DNA of 64,000 nt from Candidatus Poribacteria bacterium (GTDB lineage Bacteria; Poribacteria; WGA-4E; PCPOR2b). The notes under the pieces were generated by a model. It did not search any database. It had not been told where the DNA came from and worked only from the letters and a program-made list of their open reading frames with translations. The translations under genes were made by a program, and so were the position numbers. The stretch covers positions 4,960,001 through 5,024,000 of the forward strand of contig OZ244042.1 in the NCBI GenBank assembly GCA_965215015.1. The letters are read 5' to 3'. Numbering within the stretch: position 1 is the first letter of the stretch; each line of letters opens with the position of its first letter. This document shows positions 9,179 through 62,423 of the stretch, one piece after another.

Positions 9179-10156
9179 CTACGAAATTCCCAACTTCTTT
9201 AACTTAGAACGGAAAGTGGAGTAGGGGATGCCGAGGTTTTTTGCGGCCTGGCGGCGATTCCATCGAGTTCCTTCAAGTGCCTGCAAGATCCGCTCGTACT
9301 CGCTTTCGCCTGACGATTGGTCATATTGGGACTGCCGCTTTTCCAATGCGTCTCCTTGAATATTAAGATGTTTGACTCCTATCACCGAAATCTTTGGCGG
9401 ACAAAGAACCGCGGTGCGTTCAACGATGTTCTGCAACTCACGTACATTGCCCGGGTATTGATAATCCAGAAGGAACGATTGAGCCCCTTCTGAAAAGCCG
9501 TCAAAGCTGCGCCCACTTTTGGCGGTATATGCTTCCAGAAAATAGTCAGCCAACGGTAGGATATCCTCGGGGCGTTCCCGAAGCGGTGTTAAGTGGATAG
9601 GAAAAAGGTTGAGGCGATAGAATAGATCGCTGCGGAACCGCCCAGACTCGACAAGGTACGCGGGATTTCTATTGAATGCGCTGATAATACGCACCCGGAA
9701 GGAGATCTCCAGAGCACCGCCAACACGTCGCAGGGTCTGGTTATCGAGGACCCGTAGGAGCTTCGCTTGTATGCGGAGTGAGAGGCCAGCAGCTTCATCC
9801 AGAAAAAGCGTACCGTTATTTGCCATCTCAAAGTAGCCAGCTCTATCCGCCGTTGCATCGGTGAACGCTCCTTTGACGTGGCCAAAGAGTTCGCTTTCGA
9901 CCAGCGACTCTGGCAACGCCGAGCAGTTCACACCAACAAACGGTTGCTCTTCCAAAGACGATTGAGAGTGAATCGTTCGGGCGACCACCTCTTTTCCTGT
10001 ACCAGTTTCGCCGGTGAGGAGAATCCTATCAACATTTGCTCGGACCGCCTGCCGGATGCGCTCTCGCACCAGTTGGGTGGCGGGACTGTTTCCCACAAAG
10101 TTTGGATTTTGTATCCGTGGCTGGCGGTGGCTTGTTCGTCGGTTATCCATATCCAT
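9179..10156 (-). CDS. Sigma54 enhancer-binding protein lacking an N-terminal sensor domain (AAA+ and HTH)
   Basis: GETGTGKE, ESELFGHVKGAFTDA, LFLDE, FRSDLFYRL, YPGNVREL, C-terminal HTH; RBS AGGAGG; only about 18 aa precede the AAA domain. Confidence 0.92.
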   Translation of the reverse strand: MDMDNRRTSHRQPRIQNPNFVGNSPATQLVRERIRQAVRANVDRILLTGETGTGKEVVARTIHSQSSLEEQPFVGVNCSALPESLVESELFGHVKGAFTDATADRAGYFEMANNGTLFLDEAAGLSLRIQAKLLRVLDNQTLRRVGGALEISFRVRIISAFNRNPAYLVESGRFRSDLFYRLNLFPIHLTPLRERPEDILPLADYFLEAYTAKSGRSFDGFSEGAQSFLLDYQYPGNVRELQNIVERTAVLCPPKISVIGVKHLNIQGDALEKRQSQYDQSSGESEYERILQALEGTRWNRRQAAKNLGIPYSTFRSKLKKLGIS

Positions 10157-10227: not shown

Positions 10228-10814
10228 TAGGTCTTACGCAGTTGAAACCTCGACGCCTTGTCGGTCGAGATTCATATCTCGACACCGACAGAAAGGGTAG
10301 GCTCTGCGCTACCATTACAGATTCTGAAGACCATTCGGCTGTATCACTCGGATTGGCTGAACCAATTGAAGTCGAACCAACAGGTCAATCTGGATAAGCA
10401 AGGCAATCAACCTGTCTGCGAACTACCTATTAGTGAAAAAGGGAGCATCGTTCATTTGAAGGGATATGGATGGATTCAAGTTTTCAAGAGAGTTTTCCCA
10501 AACGGCAACGTTGAATACTGGGCAACCAGCGCCCTCTCAATGAGCGAGATGTATCGACTCAAGTCTGCCGAGTTATCTTGGTCAATTGAAGCATATCATT
10601 AAGGTATCAAGCAATTAGTCGGTATTGGGAGGTGTCTCGCACGCAAAGCAGTTGCCCAACGGAATCATATCGGGTTAGCATTACGAGCGTTTTTCCGCAT
10701 AGAACACCACTGTTTTTCGATGGCATTAGTAGGTTTGAAACCAAAGTCTCGATTATCAGAGACGCGGTGAACACTTATCTCCCTCAACCCATTTACACCT
10801 TTGTGTAACTCCTA
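10228..10814 (+). mobile_element. IS701-family remnant with both terminal repeats
   Basis: TAGGTCTTACGCA (10228) ... TGTGTAACTCCTA (10814) enclosing a transposase C-terminal fragment. Confidence 0.8.
10324..10808 (+). pseudogene. IS701-family transposase C-terminal fragment
   Basis: LKSNQQV, VHLKGYGWIQVF, EYWAT, WSIEAYH*GIKQ, AQRNHIGLALRAF; stop at 10600 and frameshift near 10720 before IIRDAV. Confidence 0.85.
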
Positions 10815-10854
10815 CCTCTTTCAAGAATGGGATATTTGGAAACTGAACAAAAAA

Positions 10855-10863: not shown

Positions 10864-11114
10864 CAAGCGGATTGACTTGAACAGCTTTTTATTTTACAAA
10901 AGGGTTGGAGTTTAATGGAAGTTGCGTGTTAGCCAAGCCATCCGCTTGCGTTCTTTCCCCTCCACTTGCGGGGGGCAGGGGTGGTACTCCTCTGGGATTT
11001 ACCAAAGCCGCCCGATGAATCGCCGAGGATACCATGACCATTGCGCCCCCTTATTCTAGTGTTGGCTTCGAGGGTTCAACTATGTAACTCCTACCTCTTT
11101 TACAAAATGCTTAT

Positions 11115-11498
11115 CAAAAATCCTTTAGGAGTGTTACCTCCAAAATTTATGTTTGGAGATAACCCCCTGCCTTCGCATTGGTTTTCTTGCTTTCAAAAGC
11201 GTTTGGGTGTATAATTGACCGACAGCTATACCTCCTGCCGAAAATGGTCATCAGGGGTAAAAGTCGAGACAGGTTTTCTCATACTGCGACGGTCGTTTGT
11301 TGTAGGAGGTATGGCTGCCCCCAGTTGCCCTGATAAATCGGGACATACCTGTTAGGCAAAGCCTGACAGGCAGGGCATTGTCCACTGCGGTAGCAGTTGT
11401 CAGACGGGCTCCGGTTCGCTATCCGCGTTGATAAGCATAATTCGACTCTTAAAGGAACAGGTAGGCCTCCCAATCCTCTAGGCGTGGGAGTACGTCAA
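11115..11498 (+). mobile_element. Non-autonomous IS200/IS605-family derivative (PATE-like), no protein gene
   Basis: TTAT|CAAAA candidate left junction, hairpin 11133-11163, right-end hairpin CTCCCA..TGGGAG (11467-11490) followed by TACGTCAA. Confidence 0.7.
11187..11215 (+). promoter_or_regulatory. Sigma70 promoter inside the IS605-like element
   Basis: TTGCTT-17 nt-TATAAT. Confidence 0.7.
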
Positions 11499-11520
11499 CA
11501 GAAGGTGTTCCTAGCGATAC
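11221..11520 (+). ncRNA. Putative TnpB-type omega/reRNA with 3' flank-derived guide
   Basis: Promoter-proximal 14 bp stem (11223-11236 / 11304-11317), nested hairpins, ends in an IS605-type right end (GTCAA); hairpin at 11521-11539 downstream. Confidence 0.55.
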
Positions 11521-11558
11521 GCGGGTTTTGGATTCCCGCTTGGAACTTGTCCAAAAAA

Positions 11559-11607
11559 GTTAGCAATAGTTACTAACATCAGCAATAGTTGCTAAGCAAC
11601 AGTTGCT
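11559..11607. promoter_or_regulatory. Three palindromic AGCAA-N3-TTGCT sites (candidate sigma54 enhancer/UAS)
   Basis: AGCAATAGTTACT 11562, AGCAATAGTTGCT 11581, AGCAACAGTTGCT 11595; 90-135 bp upstream of the -24/-12 promoter. Confidence 0.65.
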
Positions 11608-11695
11608 AATAATTGGATTAATCGCTTCAAAAATCCTTTGAACATTTTGCGTCGAAAGCCTGATGCTGACTGGCTTTGGACGATTATCGTTTCTT

Positions 11696-11712
11696 TTGGC
11701 ATGTTAATTGCT
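11696..11712 (+). promoter_or_regulatory. Sigma54 (-24/-12) promoter
   Basis: TTGGCATGTTAATTGCT: GG-N10-GC with TGGCA and TTGCT consensus. Confidence 0.75.
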
Positions 11713-11818
11713 TCTATGAGTTTGTGGTTGAATCCTTCAACCGTAGCGAAAAACATGGATTTTCAACAGGTAGCAACTTGGATTGGCATATTCTCACGTC
11801 AGTGTGCTAAGATCTTTT

Positions 11819-12088
11819 GTGAAATTGAGAATCCGTTTTCACCTAACGGAATGCAAAAGCACTCCTTACAACGCACTTTTATGTGGGACAGTTCCTTTTT
11901 GTTCTCAAGAGGCATCCGCTAACTGTGCAGACGCATGGCGAAGGTGTTACAATGCTCGGGATTTAGCCATAACAATTTGTGCGATTGCTATAGTGGAGCC
12001 CACCCCTGCTGGAGAGTTGGCTTGTACGGCTGCTCTTGCGAATGCGGCCAGTTTGTGCGGGTACGCTTACCTATTTTGTGGCGGATAG
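11819..12088 (+). CDS. Small Cys-rich, probably exported peptide; 5' end uncertain or damaged
   Basis: A-x-A cleavage-like site (QEASA|N); 55-aa mature part with C-X6-C-X10-C-X14-C-X10-C-X6-C; nearest ATG (11851) is out of frame, GTG 11819 is in frame. Confidence 0.6.
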   Translation: MKLRIRFHLTECKSTPYNALLCGTVPFCSQEASANCADAWRRCYNARDLAITICAIAIVEPTPAGELACTAALANAASLCGYAYLFCGG

Positions 12089-12176: not shown

Positions 12177-13547
12177 ATGCAACGTCATCACATTGCAGCT
12201 TTGTTTTTACTTGTATTTGCAGGACTGTCCTTTTATCAGGGATTCCACGACGGGGAGGTAGGACGTCCGATTTGGATAGGTATCGCATGGACTGTATTGG
12301 GAGTTGTCGCGTTTTTTTATGATAAATTGAGGGCCTGGCTTAGGCACGTTGTTGTCGCGCTACCATTCGCTCTCATGGGGGCAATGGTAATTAAAGAGAT
12401 TATCAGCGGGTATATCGTAGGGGCAATTGTATGGGGTCTTGCTTTGATTGTCGTGGGTGTCTTTGCGTTTTTTCAAGACAGGTCCTTCATTGCGGAAAAG
12501 GTGAGACCTTGGTTGAGACCCATCCCGTTTATAGCGGTGGGTATTTTGCTCATCTGGAAACTGTTTTTCCTCTCCGTTGTTGAACGAAAAATGGAAAAAT
12601 CCCCCAAGCCGGTAGGGTTTCACCAAAATCCGGACGTTTCTCCAGAATCAGCACTCAACAGCGATTTGCAAGAAGTGACCAAACCCGTTTTCAGTGACTC
12701 TCAGCAAAAGGTAATGGATATCCTTGCCTCTGAAGAAGTGAGGCAAGAGGTTAAAGCAGCCGCTGCCGCTGGGACTCCACCGGAATTTTTGAAGTCGTTC
12801 ACAAATTTCAAAGACTATATGATTTCCAAAGGTGTGACAGAGTTTGAGATACTTGATCAGGCCCCTTCACATTTTCAAGACCTATTTCAAAAACACCATC
12901 CCGGAAAGGCTCCCTCAGACTTAGATTCGGAGATGCGCCAACGCCTCATTGACATGGTTCAGGAGTTCGGATATGAGGAAGGACGCCAAAAATTTTTGCG
13001 TACACCGGAAATTGCAATTTGGACAGCGGCCCGATTCAATATCCTGGATAATCCGGGGGCCATTTCGGCGTGGACGGAAAGTGTTTACACGGACGAATTT
13101 GGGGATACTGTAGATGCTCTCAGTAGTGTTCCTCCTCCGGTGGTGTCCCCCGGCGACACAACCTTTGATGAAACCGCTTCCGACCTCCCTTTCACGGAAG
13201 TAGAACCGGCATCTCCGGACCGAGTGTCGACAGCAGCGTGGGAAGATTCTACACCAGCGATTGAACCGGAAAAGGTTGGCACCAAAGTGGCACCGGAGCC
13301 GCCTACACCTACTACCGAGGAGGGGATTGAAACCGCCCTGAAAGCGCAGTTTTCACCGGAGCGGTTCGAGCTGGCAATGTCCACTTTGGAACGGTATGGA
13401 CCGGAAGAGGGGCTCCGCTGTCTGAGAGAAAACGACCCGGAGGTTGCTAAGCAGATCGAAGGCTTGCGGAACGGAGTTGAAAACTCACGGCGTGCCGGAG
13501 TAGAACAGCACCACAACAGAGAACGCAAAGAGGAGGATTTCCAATGA
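12177..13547 (+). CDS. Hypothetical membrane protein (about 5 N-terminal TM helices, Pro/acidic linker, C-terminal YGPEEGL motif)
   Basis: 456-aa ORF with RBS AAGGA; hydrophobic N-terminus. Confidence 0.85.
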   Translation: MQRHHIAALFLLVFAGLSFYQGFHDGEVGRPIWIGIAWTVLGVVAFFYDKLRAWLRHVVVALPFALMGAMVIKEIISGYIVGAIVWGLALIVVGVFAFFQDRSFIAEKVRPWLRPIPFIAVGILLIWKLFFLSVVERKMEKSPKPVGFHQNPDVSPESALNSDLQEVTKPVFSDSQQKVMDILASEEVRQEVKAAAAAGTPPEFLKSFTNFKDYMISKGVTEFEILDQAPSHFQDLFQKHHPGKAPSDLDSEMRQRLIDMVQEFGYEEGRQKFLRTPEIAIWTAARFNILDNPGAISAWTESVYTDEFGDTVDALSSVPPPVVSPGDTTFDETASDLPFTEVEPASPDRVSTAAWEDSTPAIEPEKVGTKVAPEPPTPTTEEGIETALKAQFSPERFELAMSTLERYGPEEGLRCLRENDPEVAKQIEGLRNGVENSRRAGVEQHHNRERKEEDFQ

Positions 13548-60525: not shown

Positions 60526-62142
60526 ATGACACGCTTCTTTCGGATTGATCTGGTTCTCATTCCTATCCTTACAATCGGCTTCGTTCTCCGAATCGTTGGG
60601 CTTGGCGTCGGCTTGCCCGACCACCCTGATCCACGTGAGCCGCTGATTGCACACGACATCCTCAATCTCATCCATCTTGAATCCTCACCCGATATCTATA
60701 ATTGGCCCGGAACCGCTTGGTTCTACCTAATTGCGGCGATTGGGATGGTTTTAGAGACGTTTGGATTAGAACTCACAGTGGTTCACATTATCTGGCTGGG
60801 CCGCTTGATAAACGTTCTGCTGTCAACGACGACCATCTGGCTGACGTATCAGATTGGGCACCGGTTTTACAGCCGCTCTACTGGACTTATCAGCGGTGGA
60901 TTGCTCGCCGTAGCAATGTTGCATACAACGAACGAGTCTCGCTTTGCACTCGTTGACATCCCCGCGACCTTCTGTGTAACCCTACTGCTCTGGTTCTGTG
61001 CCAAAGCACAATCCGTTTCATTGCGTCAAGCCGTTTGGCTGGGCGTTATCGCGGGAATCGGCTTCGCTGTCAAGTTCACAACGATCTTCGCAGGCTTATC
61101 CGTTGCCATCCTTCTATTCCTGCGATCCGAGCGTTTTCGGCCTTCAGATTTTCTCTTGAAATTAGCGACCGTTATCGGGGTTGCAGGAGCGACGTTCACG
61201 ATCATCTGTCCGTACTGGCTGATCGATATCTTCTCTCCAGAGTGGAATCTATTCTTCAATGCCCTCCTCTACGAATCCTCGCATTACCAAAAAGGACACT
61301 TGGGACTGTTTGCGACCGGCGAAATCAACTGGCTCAATCGATTTACCTATTTGTGGAGGCTTCTGCAGTGGGGCATGGGGACACCGTTGGCGTTGCTTGC
61401 AATCGCCGGAACTCTGTCGGCAATAATCCTACGGAAAGATGGGGATAAAATCCTCCTCGCCTTTGTGATACCCTACCTACTATTCATCGGTTCACACAAA
61501 CTGAAATTTGTCCGTCATCTCTTGCTGATTTACCCGCTGTTGATACTATTCGCAGCAGGAGGTATCGGTAGAGTGAGCACCGTGCTCACCCAATCCGATC
61601 GGGGCTATCGAAATTCGATTCTGAAACAGTGGGCAAAGCCCGCCCTATCGGTCCTGATTTTGGGTGGGGTAAGTGCATATTCGCTGATTTATACTGCTGC
61701 CTTTGCCAGTGTTATGAAATCTACCCCAACGACAGTTGAGGCGGCTGAATGGATAGAATCGAATATCCCACCGGATGAAGCGGTCGAATACGAACCTGAA
61801 ATCTTGTTTGATTGGTTGCTGCCAAGACTGGATCGAGAGGACAAAGGGAAGGAAGCAGAGTGGGTACTTGTTTTGATGCCAAATGCGGAGGTCTTTCTAA
61901 ACTACGCTGCGAAGCCAACACATTACTCTGCAATTGATTGGTATCCGTTGGAGACGGTTGATACAGAGGCGGCGATGGAATTCTACGAGCGGATTCTCGG
62001 GAAGTCGAGCCGATACACACTCGCCCAACGTTTTCAGCGTCAGCCCCGCTTTCTCGGTATCTCGATTTCTGACCACGGCGCGCCATTTCCGATACGGGCA
62101 TTGACGCATCCAGAGATACGGATTTACCGGTTGCAGGAGTAA
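60526..62142 (+). CDS. GT-C membrane glycosyltransferase (GT39/ArnT-like)
   Basis: HPDP.E, GRLINVL, SRFALVD, G....VKFT, RHLL..YP; many TM helices. Confidence 0.85.
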   Translation: MTRFFRIDLVLIPILTIGFVLRIVGLGVGLPDHPDPREPLIAHDILNLIHLESSPDIYNWPGTAWFYLIAAIGMVLETFGLELTVVHIIWLGRLINVLLSTTTIWLTYQIGHRFYSRSTGLISGGLLAVAMLHTTNESRFALVDIPATFCVTLLLWFCAKAQSVSLRQAVWLGVIAGIGFAVKFTTIFAGLSVAILLFLRSERFRPSDFLLKLATVIGVAGATFTIICPYWLIDIFSPEWNLFFNALLYESSHYQKGHLGLFATGEINWLNRFTYLWRLLQWGMGTPLALLAIAGTLSAIILRKDGDKILLAFVIPYLLFIGSHKLKFVRHLLLIYPLLILFAAGGIGRVSTVLTQSDRGYRNSILKQWAKPALSVLILGGVSAYSLIYTAAFASVMKSTPTTVEAAEWIESNIPPDEAVEYEPEILFDWLLPRLDREDKGKEAEWVLVLMPNAEVFLNYAAKPTHYSAIDWYPLETVDTEAAMEFYERILGKSSRYTLAQRFQRQPRFLGISISDHGAPFPIRALTHPEIRIYRLQE

Positions 62143-62394
62143 CGCTAGAAGCATTTATCGATTTTGATGCAATTGCCGGGGAGAAGTTTCCAACCCGATT
62201 GCTTGCCCCCTAAGCACCCTAACCCTCCCTACCCCCCCTTGCGGGGGACCGAGGGGAGGCTTAGACGACCGCACTTTTTACCTTCACCACGGTCAGTGAA
62301 CATCTTACGGAGTTTTAGATCGGAAGATTTTGATAATTAAGGTTCGCCCTCCAGTATAGCCTTGGGTATCGAGTGCTGCCAGGAATTAAATCTT

Positions 62395-62423
62395 TTGCAC
62401 CTTCCTTCTCTGTGTGGTAAAAT
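62395..62423 (+). promoter_or_regulatory. Sigma70 promoter of polX
   Basis: TTGCAC-17 nt-TAAAAT with extended TG. Confidence 0.6.

Follow-up and report, generated by a model that had tools for sequence, protein, structure and literature searches.

A protein-free, PATE-like derivative of tnpB-only IS200/IS605 elements, probably an immobile relic, in a Candidatus Poribacteria genome

General features of the element

The window analyzed here is a 64,000-nucleotide stretch of the genome of a Candidatus Poribacteria bacterium, and at positions 11115-11498 it contains what is very probably a PATE-like, non-autonomous and protein-free derivative of tnpB-only IS200/IS605 (IS1341-type) elements. The full reading, which is held with the same high confidence, includes the status of the element as an immobile relic. 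Its boundaries, family membership, homology to tnpB-linked sequences and covarying scaffold are observed, as is the lack of any intact tnpA or tnpB in the host genome. An initial annotation had described a protein-free IS605-like element at this locus, and each of the features that it listed, comprising the left junction, left hairpin, promoter, closing stem, right-end hairpin, and 22-nt flank with its GC hairpin, was found at the coordinates given below. The element is 384 bases long, and its parts and immediate surroundings are as follows.

11111..11114, + strand: putative target site and transposon-adjacent motif (TAM) TTAT, outside the element; precedes CAAAAA in most copies
11115..11186, + strand: left end, with the conserved CAAAAATCCTTTAGG, a subterminal hairpin at 11133-11163 and then CCCCTGC..GCATTGG; aligns with the intact tnpB elements of relatives
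11187..11215, + strand: putative sigma-70-like promoter TTGCTT-17-TATAAT, predicted start near 11222; conserved in paralogs
11223..11317, + strand: structured leader (the 5' stem domain of the initial annotation), nested hairpins inside a closing stem; predicted folds
11318..11366, + strand: poorly conserved linker; 47% mean pairwise identity, many indels
11367..11498, + strand: putative TnpB omegaRNA (reRNA) scaffold and right end; homology to the last ~131 nt of intact elements, and covariation
11499..11520, + strand: 3' flank and candidate guide, native intergenic DNA outside the element; differs among copies, and homology to the relative G009 resumes at 11499

The two stems in the 5' half were recovered by an inverted-repeat search, in which the arms of the left-end hairpin (11133-11144 / 11152-11163) were 12 nt long and 92% complementary and those of the closing stem (11223-11236 / 11304-11317) were 14 nt long and 93% complementary. 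Long-range inverted repeats that link the left end with sequence close to the right end were also considered and rejected, as they cross each other or take in flank bases, and they are treated as shared TnpA-site motifs or chance. The putative promoter consists of TTGCTT at 11187-11192, a spacer of 17 nt and TATAAT at 11210-11215, and it was left uncalled by a consensus promoter scan because its -35 hexamer fits at just 3 of 6 positions. A linker hairpin predicted at ~11348-11370, which overlaps the scaffold part by 4 nt, occurs only in the window copy and in copy c2268. The right-end hairpin occupies 11467-11490, the terminal TACGTCAA reaches 11498, and the flank CAGAAGGTGTTCCTAGCGATAC at 11499-11520 is followed by GCGGG...CCCGC.

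No open reading frame longer than 64 aa overlaps the element. TnpB similarity was not detected within it (best tblastn E 0.2-2.8, with PF07282 and NF040570 matches absent there), TnpA profile matches inside it were likewise lacking, and indels among copies disrupt every reading frame in an alignment of eight copies. The whole window gave no Rfam match at gathering scores and the element gave none even at E up to 10, and a scan for tRNA and tmRNA returned nothing.

Paralogous copies in the host genome

The host genome is a single contig of 5.94 Mb and is 98% complete. A BLAST search with positions 11060-11600 against this genome returned 54 HSPs, of which the long ones begin at 11111 and finish at 11498. 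Two copies match the whole of 11111-11498 (76-77% identity), six others span most of it, and ~25 matches are confined to the last 30-130 nt of the element, so that ~10 longer paralogs and additional right-end-only fragments are dispersed in the genome. TCAA terminates 21/24 right-end matches and the flanks are unrelated in all of them, and the 12-mer GGAGTAYGTCAA has 43 genome occurrences where 1.4 are expected. These copies with identical ends and different flanks, which the initial annotation had proposed as a check on its reading, bear out both the protein-free IS200/IS605-type element and its exact ends, from CAAAA directly after TTAT to TCAA, given that paralog homology spans 11111-11498 and then stops. 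The features of the element are far more than chance would produce.

In the alignment of eight copies, which extends from the promoter to 22 nt beyond the right end, conservation ends right after TCAA, and mean pairwise identity is 88% in the promoter, 79% in the leader, 47% in the linker, 81% in the 3' scaffold and 30% in the flank. Conservation is thus highest in the promoter, where TTG and TATAAT are each retained in 7/8 paralogs. Individual copies are damaged in different ways, with c4303 lacking half of the right-end hairpin, c2126 lacking the left-end hairpin and c5808 carrying a nested insertion. A further paralog, c3857 (G000:C1:3857052-3857198, - strand), agrees with the family in its left end, in its promoter and, through CTATACCTCC, in one half of the closing stem; ~250 nt of different sequence come next, and then the matching GGAGGTATAG and a diverged 3' end, the closing stem being retained around a different insert.

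Open reading frames upstream of the right-end-only matches in the host genome are ordinary host genes and not tnpB, and TNB-domain remnants occur ~135 nt upstream of several right ends. Among the right-end motifs, 23/43 lie on the inferred leading strand, a share that says little about strand bias because the GC skew of the genome is weak and asymmetric. Among the public runs that contain this sequence, none of RNA is listed. Contigs assembled from four runs of one study cover 11009-11900 and show no differences from the window. None of these contigs, which would miss rare empty sites, joins 11114 to 11499, and the sole joint reported in them skips 11130-11182, which fits the paralog type without a left-end hairpin.

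Insertion site and surrounding locus

An empty site, which the initial annotation had suggested looking for, is present in the relative G009. This genome (locus L018) retains two markers of the surrounding locus, an ortholog (76% aa identity) of the sigma-54 activator gene upstream of the element and the conserved region downstream of it, and the intergenic sequence runs ...AAAATTTAT directly into CACAGGGAGTTCGCAGCGAT... (CACAGGGAG...). The local alignment of G009 with the right flank of the window starts at 11499, the first base past TCAA, and in G009 TTAT abuts this flank with no duplication. The junction has the form expected of an IS200/IS605 empty site, and since TTAT joins the right flank directly, the comparison points to insertion 3' of TTAT without target-site duplication. 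In G004 and G015 divergence prevents the junction from being read, the homologous flank beginning 9-17 nt further in.

The divergent gene upstream of the element (9179-10156, - strand) encodes a sigma-54 activator (Pfam Sigma54_activat, E = 1e-61). Downstream, the palindrome AGCAAnAGTTnCTAA occurs three times at 11560-11609 and is conserved in four relatives, and a sigma-54-type TGGCAT-N5-TTGCT was read by eye at about 11698-11713. With the activator gene upstream and the palindromes and sigma-54-type element downstream, the mini-transposon lies between the gene for an enhancer-binding protein and the sites to which that protein likely binds, with its own promoter directed at these sites.

A MITE-like repeat at 10902-11093 ends 17 nt upstream of TTAT. 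Its left module (10902-10941) has ~40 genome matches and its right module (11031-11093) has ~32-40, the middle being variable, and in paralog c5808 a member of the same family is nested within the left end. Positions 10804-10821 and 11083-11100 carry an exact direct repeat of 18 nt, TGTAACTCCTACCTCTTT.

Relationship to full-length tnpB elements

The tnpB with the same right end that the initial annotation anticipated was found in relatives. The right end of the window element reads ...GTACGTCAA (11498), and in relatives the same terminus, GGGAGTACGTCAA, is reached ~70 nt past the stop of intact TnpB open reading frames (MKTYKF..., 379 aa). Over its last ~131 nt the window element aligns with the tnpB 3' end and right end of the full-length elements. 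At the other extremity, the left ends of the relatives, with TTAT directly followed by CGAAAAAACCTTTAGG and then a hairpin ... GCTTTAGC, align with the short family, as does the promoter block of the full-length elements (TCTTG, ~17 nt, TAnAnT). The claim of a conserved internal promoter is thereby supported by conservation in the paralogs and by a homologous position upstream of the tnpB genes of relatives. The arms of the right-end hairpin vary in relatives (CCCCACCC/GGGTGG and CCACGGCC/GGGCGGGG). TTAT stands directly 5' of the element in 9/10 host-genome copies, before 6/6 elements of the full-length relatives and before one short copy of G003, which argues for the predicted TTAT as target site and TAM.

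Matches to tnpB at E <= 1e-20 were obtained in 20/20 genomes of the genus, the host genome included, with counts of 14 in the host genome, all of them fragments, and 2-97 per relative genome. Many of the tnpB copies listed for relatives are full-length and free of stops, most relatives in the genus have intact copies, and tnpB-only elements are abundant in this genus of Poribacteria. The genome of G003 contains two short copies of the element together with intact tnpA and tnpB. In G001 and G006 the best tnpB matches were weaker.

That the locus is instead a non-mobile structured intergenic RNA or regulatory region, resembling IS605 ends by chance, has a probability close to nil. The fold z-score of about -2, found on both strands, is the one observation that would suit such a region, and the reading is refuted by the ~10 dispersed paralogs with identical ends and unrelated flanks, by ends held in common with intact tnpB elements and by the empty site in a relative.

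The omegaRNA scaffold

Covariation in the scaffold was assessed in a set of 20 sequences, made up of 7 of the 8 aligned short copies and 13 of 14 full-length elements. Left out were c4303, whose right-end hairpin is incomplete, a full-length element bearing an insertion of 40 nt, and the short copy of G003. RNAalifold predicted 23 pairs with compensatory changes in 12 of them, a signal that chiefly contrasts the two related groups of short and full-length elements and represents few independent events. Scaffold cells were paired at 93.5%, compared with 78.3 ± 1.3% in shuffles, and the pairing, the number of compensatory pairs and the covariation score of the scaffold were matched by 0/500 shuffles, while slid controls dropped to 37-60% paired. 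Both right-end helices are part of the consensus structure, and a compensatory change is found in 1 of their 5 pairs. The 3' omegaRNA module of the initial annotation is supported in that it is homologous to, and covaries with, the tnpB-3'-end/right-end region of intact elements, and positions 11367-11498 are interpreted as a TnpB omegaRNA scaffold that would derive from a tnpB 3' end and right end.

The 5' leader domain

The suggestion that the 5' stem domain might be a new RNA motif did not find similar support, as covariation was no better than in shuffles and the domain sits at the position of a tnpB leader. In eight paralogs its 36 pairs were 89.9% paired, compared with 89.3% in shuffles, and its covariation score was reached by 87/500 shuffles. 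The fold of the domain is inherited, and its substitutions show no sign of preserving that fold.

In full-length elements a ~90-nt leader that has a closing stem separates the promoter from the tnpB start codon. The 5' domain of the window element agrees with that leader in position and resembles it in length and in the design of the closing stem, but the two are unrelated in sequence. The domain is read as what an internal deletion left of a lost tnpB subfamily, namely its leader, a reading based on position rather than on homology, and a simple origin of this kind is suggested because the promoter and 5' stem-loop sit at the tnpB promoter/leader position. Two coding interpretations were rejected: decayed tnpB coding sequence is ruled out by tblastn (E 0.2 or worse), and a 33-codon micro-ORF that can be read in the family consensus does not survive the indels of several copies, that of the window included.

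The 19 tnpB N-terminal fragments of the host genome include 7 with the standard leader motif and 0 with the window-type leader. When a looser sequence pattern was searched in genome contigs, the window-type leader was found only in the host genome and in the two G003 short copies, and the same pattern found nothing in metagenome contigs; a stricter pattern for the 5' domain returned nothing from genome or metagenome contigs.

The tnpB leader of relatives (L029, L065-L076) is itself conserved and structured, with the form GTCTTTCGTGGGAGA ... TCTCCCAC ... GAAAGAC. In an alignment of 10 of 12 distinct leaders, two poorly aligned ones being left out, compensatory changes were found in 10/27 predicted pairs. 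Rfam gave no match to this leader in the five full-length loci searched, and the leader may represent a cis-regulatory tnpB RNA that has not been described before.

Status of tnpA and tnpB in the host genome

Searches of the host genome with the PF07282, NF040570 and Y1 profiles and by tblastn found no intact tnpB or tnpA. All PF07282 matches (19/19) lie in open frames of <=109 aa, many of them with stops, all NF040570 matches (22/22) fall under the curated cut-off, and tblastn with the TnpB of a relative identified ~40 fragment loci. Many of the tnpB fragments are an N-terminal piece fused straight to a C-terminal piece, with internal deletions. Of the Y1 transposase there are two matches, each of them either interrupted or truncated at the N-terminus, and the HUH histidines have been lost from one. 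Full-length tnpA without stops is carried by relatives including G003, where the open frame is 152 aa. Within the window, a weak tblastn match to TnpB residues 60-137 at 62139-62402 (- strand; 34% identity, E = 4e-4) is probably another decayed tnpB fragment.

The reliance on TnpA and TnpB in trans proposed by the initial annotation cannot apply at present, with all tnpB copies of the host reduced to fragments and both tnpA copies broken. In the host cell the element would currently be neither movable by TnpA nor served by TnpB, and because every tnpB and tnpA in the genome is broken, the window copy and its ~10 paralogs are most likely immobile relics. Uniform neutral decay would not lead one to expect the uneven conservation of the blocks (88/79/81% compared with 47%). 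The unevenness could reflect selection after insertion, which would speak against a pure relic, or constraints that acted on master copies before insertion.

It is unlikely that the element has been exapted, with the host retaining the short family after the loss of TnpA and TnpB in the form of TnpB-independent small RNAs or of a mobile promoter, which here would point to the sigma-54 UAS/promoter region and the gene at 12177-13547. The high conservation of the promoter (88%) beside a freely varying linker (47%) would agree with exaptation, as would two copies that directly precede a start codon and have the same orientation as it. In one of them, c4303, an RBS-like GGAAGGAG and ATG come just past TCAA, and in the other, the G003 copy of L077, ATG immediately follows TCAA. 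Growth of Halobacterium was improved by overexpression of a PATE-derived ncRNA, according to the account in PMC4615843. However, leader covariation does not rise above that of shuffles, functional-looking parts are deleted in c4303 and c2126, c5808 has a nested insertion, the insertion is missing at the orthologous site of G009, and the constraints on master copies can explain the uneven conservation. It is also considered quite improbable that the host kept the gene-less copies for use after purging tnpA and tnpB, with the promoter still firing and giving rise to TnpB-free orphan RNAs, composed of the leader, the omega scaffold and a locus-specific tail, and/or acting as a portable promoter for neighbouring genes, which here would read into a sigma-54-controlled region. 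If true, the elements would show a guide-RNA gene at an early point of being domesticated without its nuclease.

Proposed mechanism and guide

For the preferred reading, that of an immobile PATE-like relic, the following mechanism is drawn by analogy from knowledge of the IS200/IS605 family. The element has kept four things, namely the left end with its putative TnpA-recognition hairpin, a tnpB-type promoter, a structured leader and the last ~131 nt, while the tnpB coding region is gone. A Y1 TnpA acting in trans would excise the top strand exactly after TTAT and after TCAA, and the excised element would insert 3' of another TTAT with no target duplication. From the left-end promoter a transcript of ~300 nt, containing leader, linker, scaffold and flank, would be produced and would be trimmed by TnpB in trans, and the first ~16-20 flank bases from 11499 would guide cutting of the TTAT-flanked empty site and so restore the element. 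In the host genome the promoter may still make an orphan RNA and read out into the adjoining region under sigma-54 control. For the element at 11115-11498, we infer transcription, processing, the use of the guide and present inactivity from its structure and from the state of the host genome.

Targets were searched with the guide taken as the first 16 nt past the right end, a length inferred from ISDra2 as described in PMC8612924, in the 6 correctly anchored copies, c1295 and c4303 being left out. The own flank was the only exact genomic match of the 16-nt guide in 6/6 copies. Matches with 1-3 mismatches numbered tens per guide, and for the window guide just one of them is preceded by TTAT. 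No sign of a trans target of the guides was seen in the host genome, and the alternative offered by the initial annotation, a stand-alone guide RNA gene aimed elsewhere, is left without support by guides that match only their own flanks exactly. That the element is an active stand-alone guide-RNA gene, with its RNA now in use, for homing or against another locus, by a TnpB that is encoded elsewhere in the genome, is very unlikely indeed: the window copy keeps its promoter and scaffold well and the concept is established for PATEs, as reported in PMC10055086, but the 98% complete single-contig genome is without an intact tnpB, its matches being fragments or containing stops, and the guides of the correctly anchored copies find no exact match beyond their own flanks.

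Comparison with known systems

Gene-less PATE-like elements of the IS200/IS605 family were reported in Geobacillus stearothermophilus by Meers et al. 2023 (PMC10055086). As described there, and like the window element, they have no protein gene and share their ends with the tnpB-bearing elements of the genome group, and an omegaRNA region is present, so that TnpA and TnpB must act in trans. Unlike these PATEs, the window element belongs to the Poribacteria lineage, resides in a host that has lost all intact tnpA and tnpB, has TTAT as its putative TAM and retains a tnpB-type promoter with a ~95-nt leader upstream of the scaffold.

In Halobacterium salinarum, Gomes-Filho et al. 2015 (PMC4615843) described sotRNAs, which come from the 3' end of IS1341-type tnpB, and the ncRNA VNG_R0052, which is transcribed from a PATE. 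The right-end hairpin was linked there to Rfam HgcC, and transcription of PATEs was predicted in other organisms, bacteria included. That system and the window element are alike in an RNA from the tnpB 3' end or a protein-free PATE and in the right-end hairpin motif. The system described there differs in being archaeal and in having a PATE that consists of fused left and right ends without the long leader of the window element, and its expression and effect on growth have been demonstrated.

The reRNA and TAM logic was defined for ISDra2 by Karvelis et al. 2021, with a reRNA of ~150 nt and a guide of ~16 nt taken from the flank (PMC8612924). As far as that description goes, ISDra2 and the window element are alike in that the scaffold consists of the tnpB 3' end and the right end, the guide would come from the flank and the TAM is the TnpA target site. 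The TAM is TTGAT in ISDra2, compared with TTAT here, and the likeness rests on layout. The RNA of the window element would begin ~145 nt ahead of the scaffold, at a promoter of its own, whereas that of ISDra2, in the same account, lies inside the tnpB mRNA. According to Nety et al., TnpB trims its own mRNA and longer transcripts at the 5' side into omegaRNA (PMC10278001), which would let a leader-bearing transcript mature.

The right end of a full-length tnpB element in G010 (L030:1476-1598) matched HgcC (RF00062) with 27.8 bits and E = 7.9e-5 in a 261-nt search. The likeness lies in a terminal hairpin with a UUUA loop and in the GAG..GUCA after it, both of which are aligned in L030. The gathering score of HgcC is 50, which L030 does not reach, and the window element gave no match at E up to 10; by the Rfam criterion it is not a member of HgcC.

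IS608 of Helicobacter pylori is cleaved at its right end after TCAA. It resembles the window element in the peel-and-paste layout, the subterminal hairpins and the lack of target duplication, and it differs in carrying tnpA and tnpB, of which the window element has neither. The two are also alike in insertion 3' of a tetranucleotide, which is TTAC in IS608 as given in PMC8612924.

PATEs that encode omegaRNA are already described in the accounts cited above (PMC10055086, PMC4615843), and the window element leaves the known mechanism unchanged. It adds a base-resolved omegaRNA-bearing PATE from a little-studied phylum of sponge symbionts, with its putative TAM TTAT and right end defined, and intact cognate TnpB and TnpA genes exist in sister genomes. 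The genus ranges from ~100 tnpB matches in a genome to the host genome with only fragments and orphan guide cassettes, and this natural contrast between expansion and extinction of TnpB within one genus could show how TnpB families die out.
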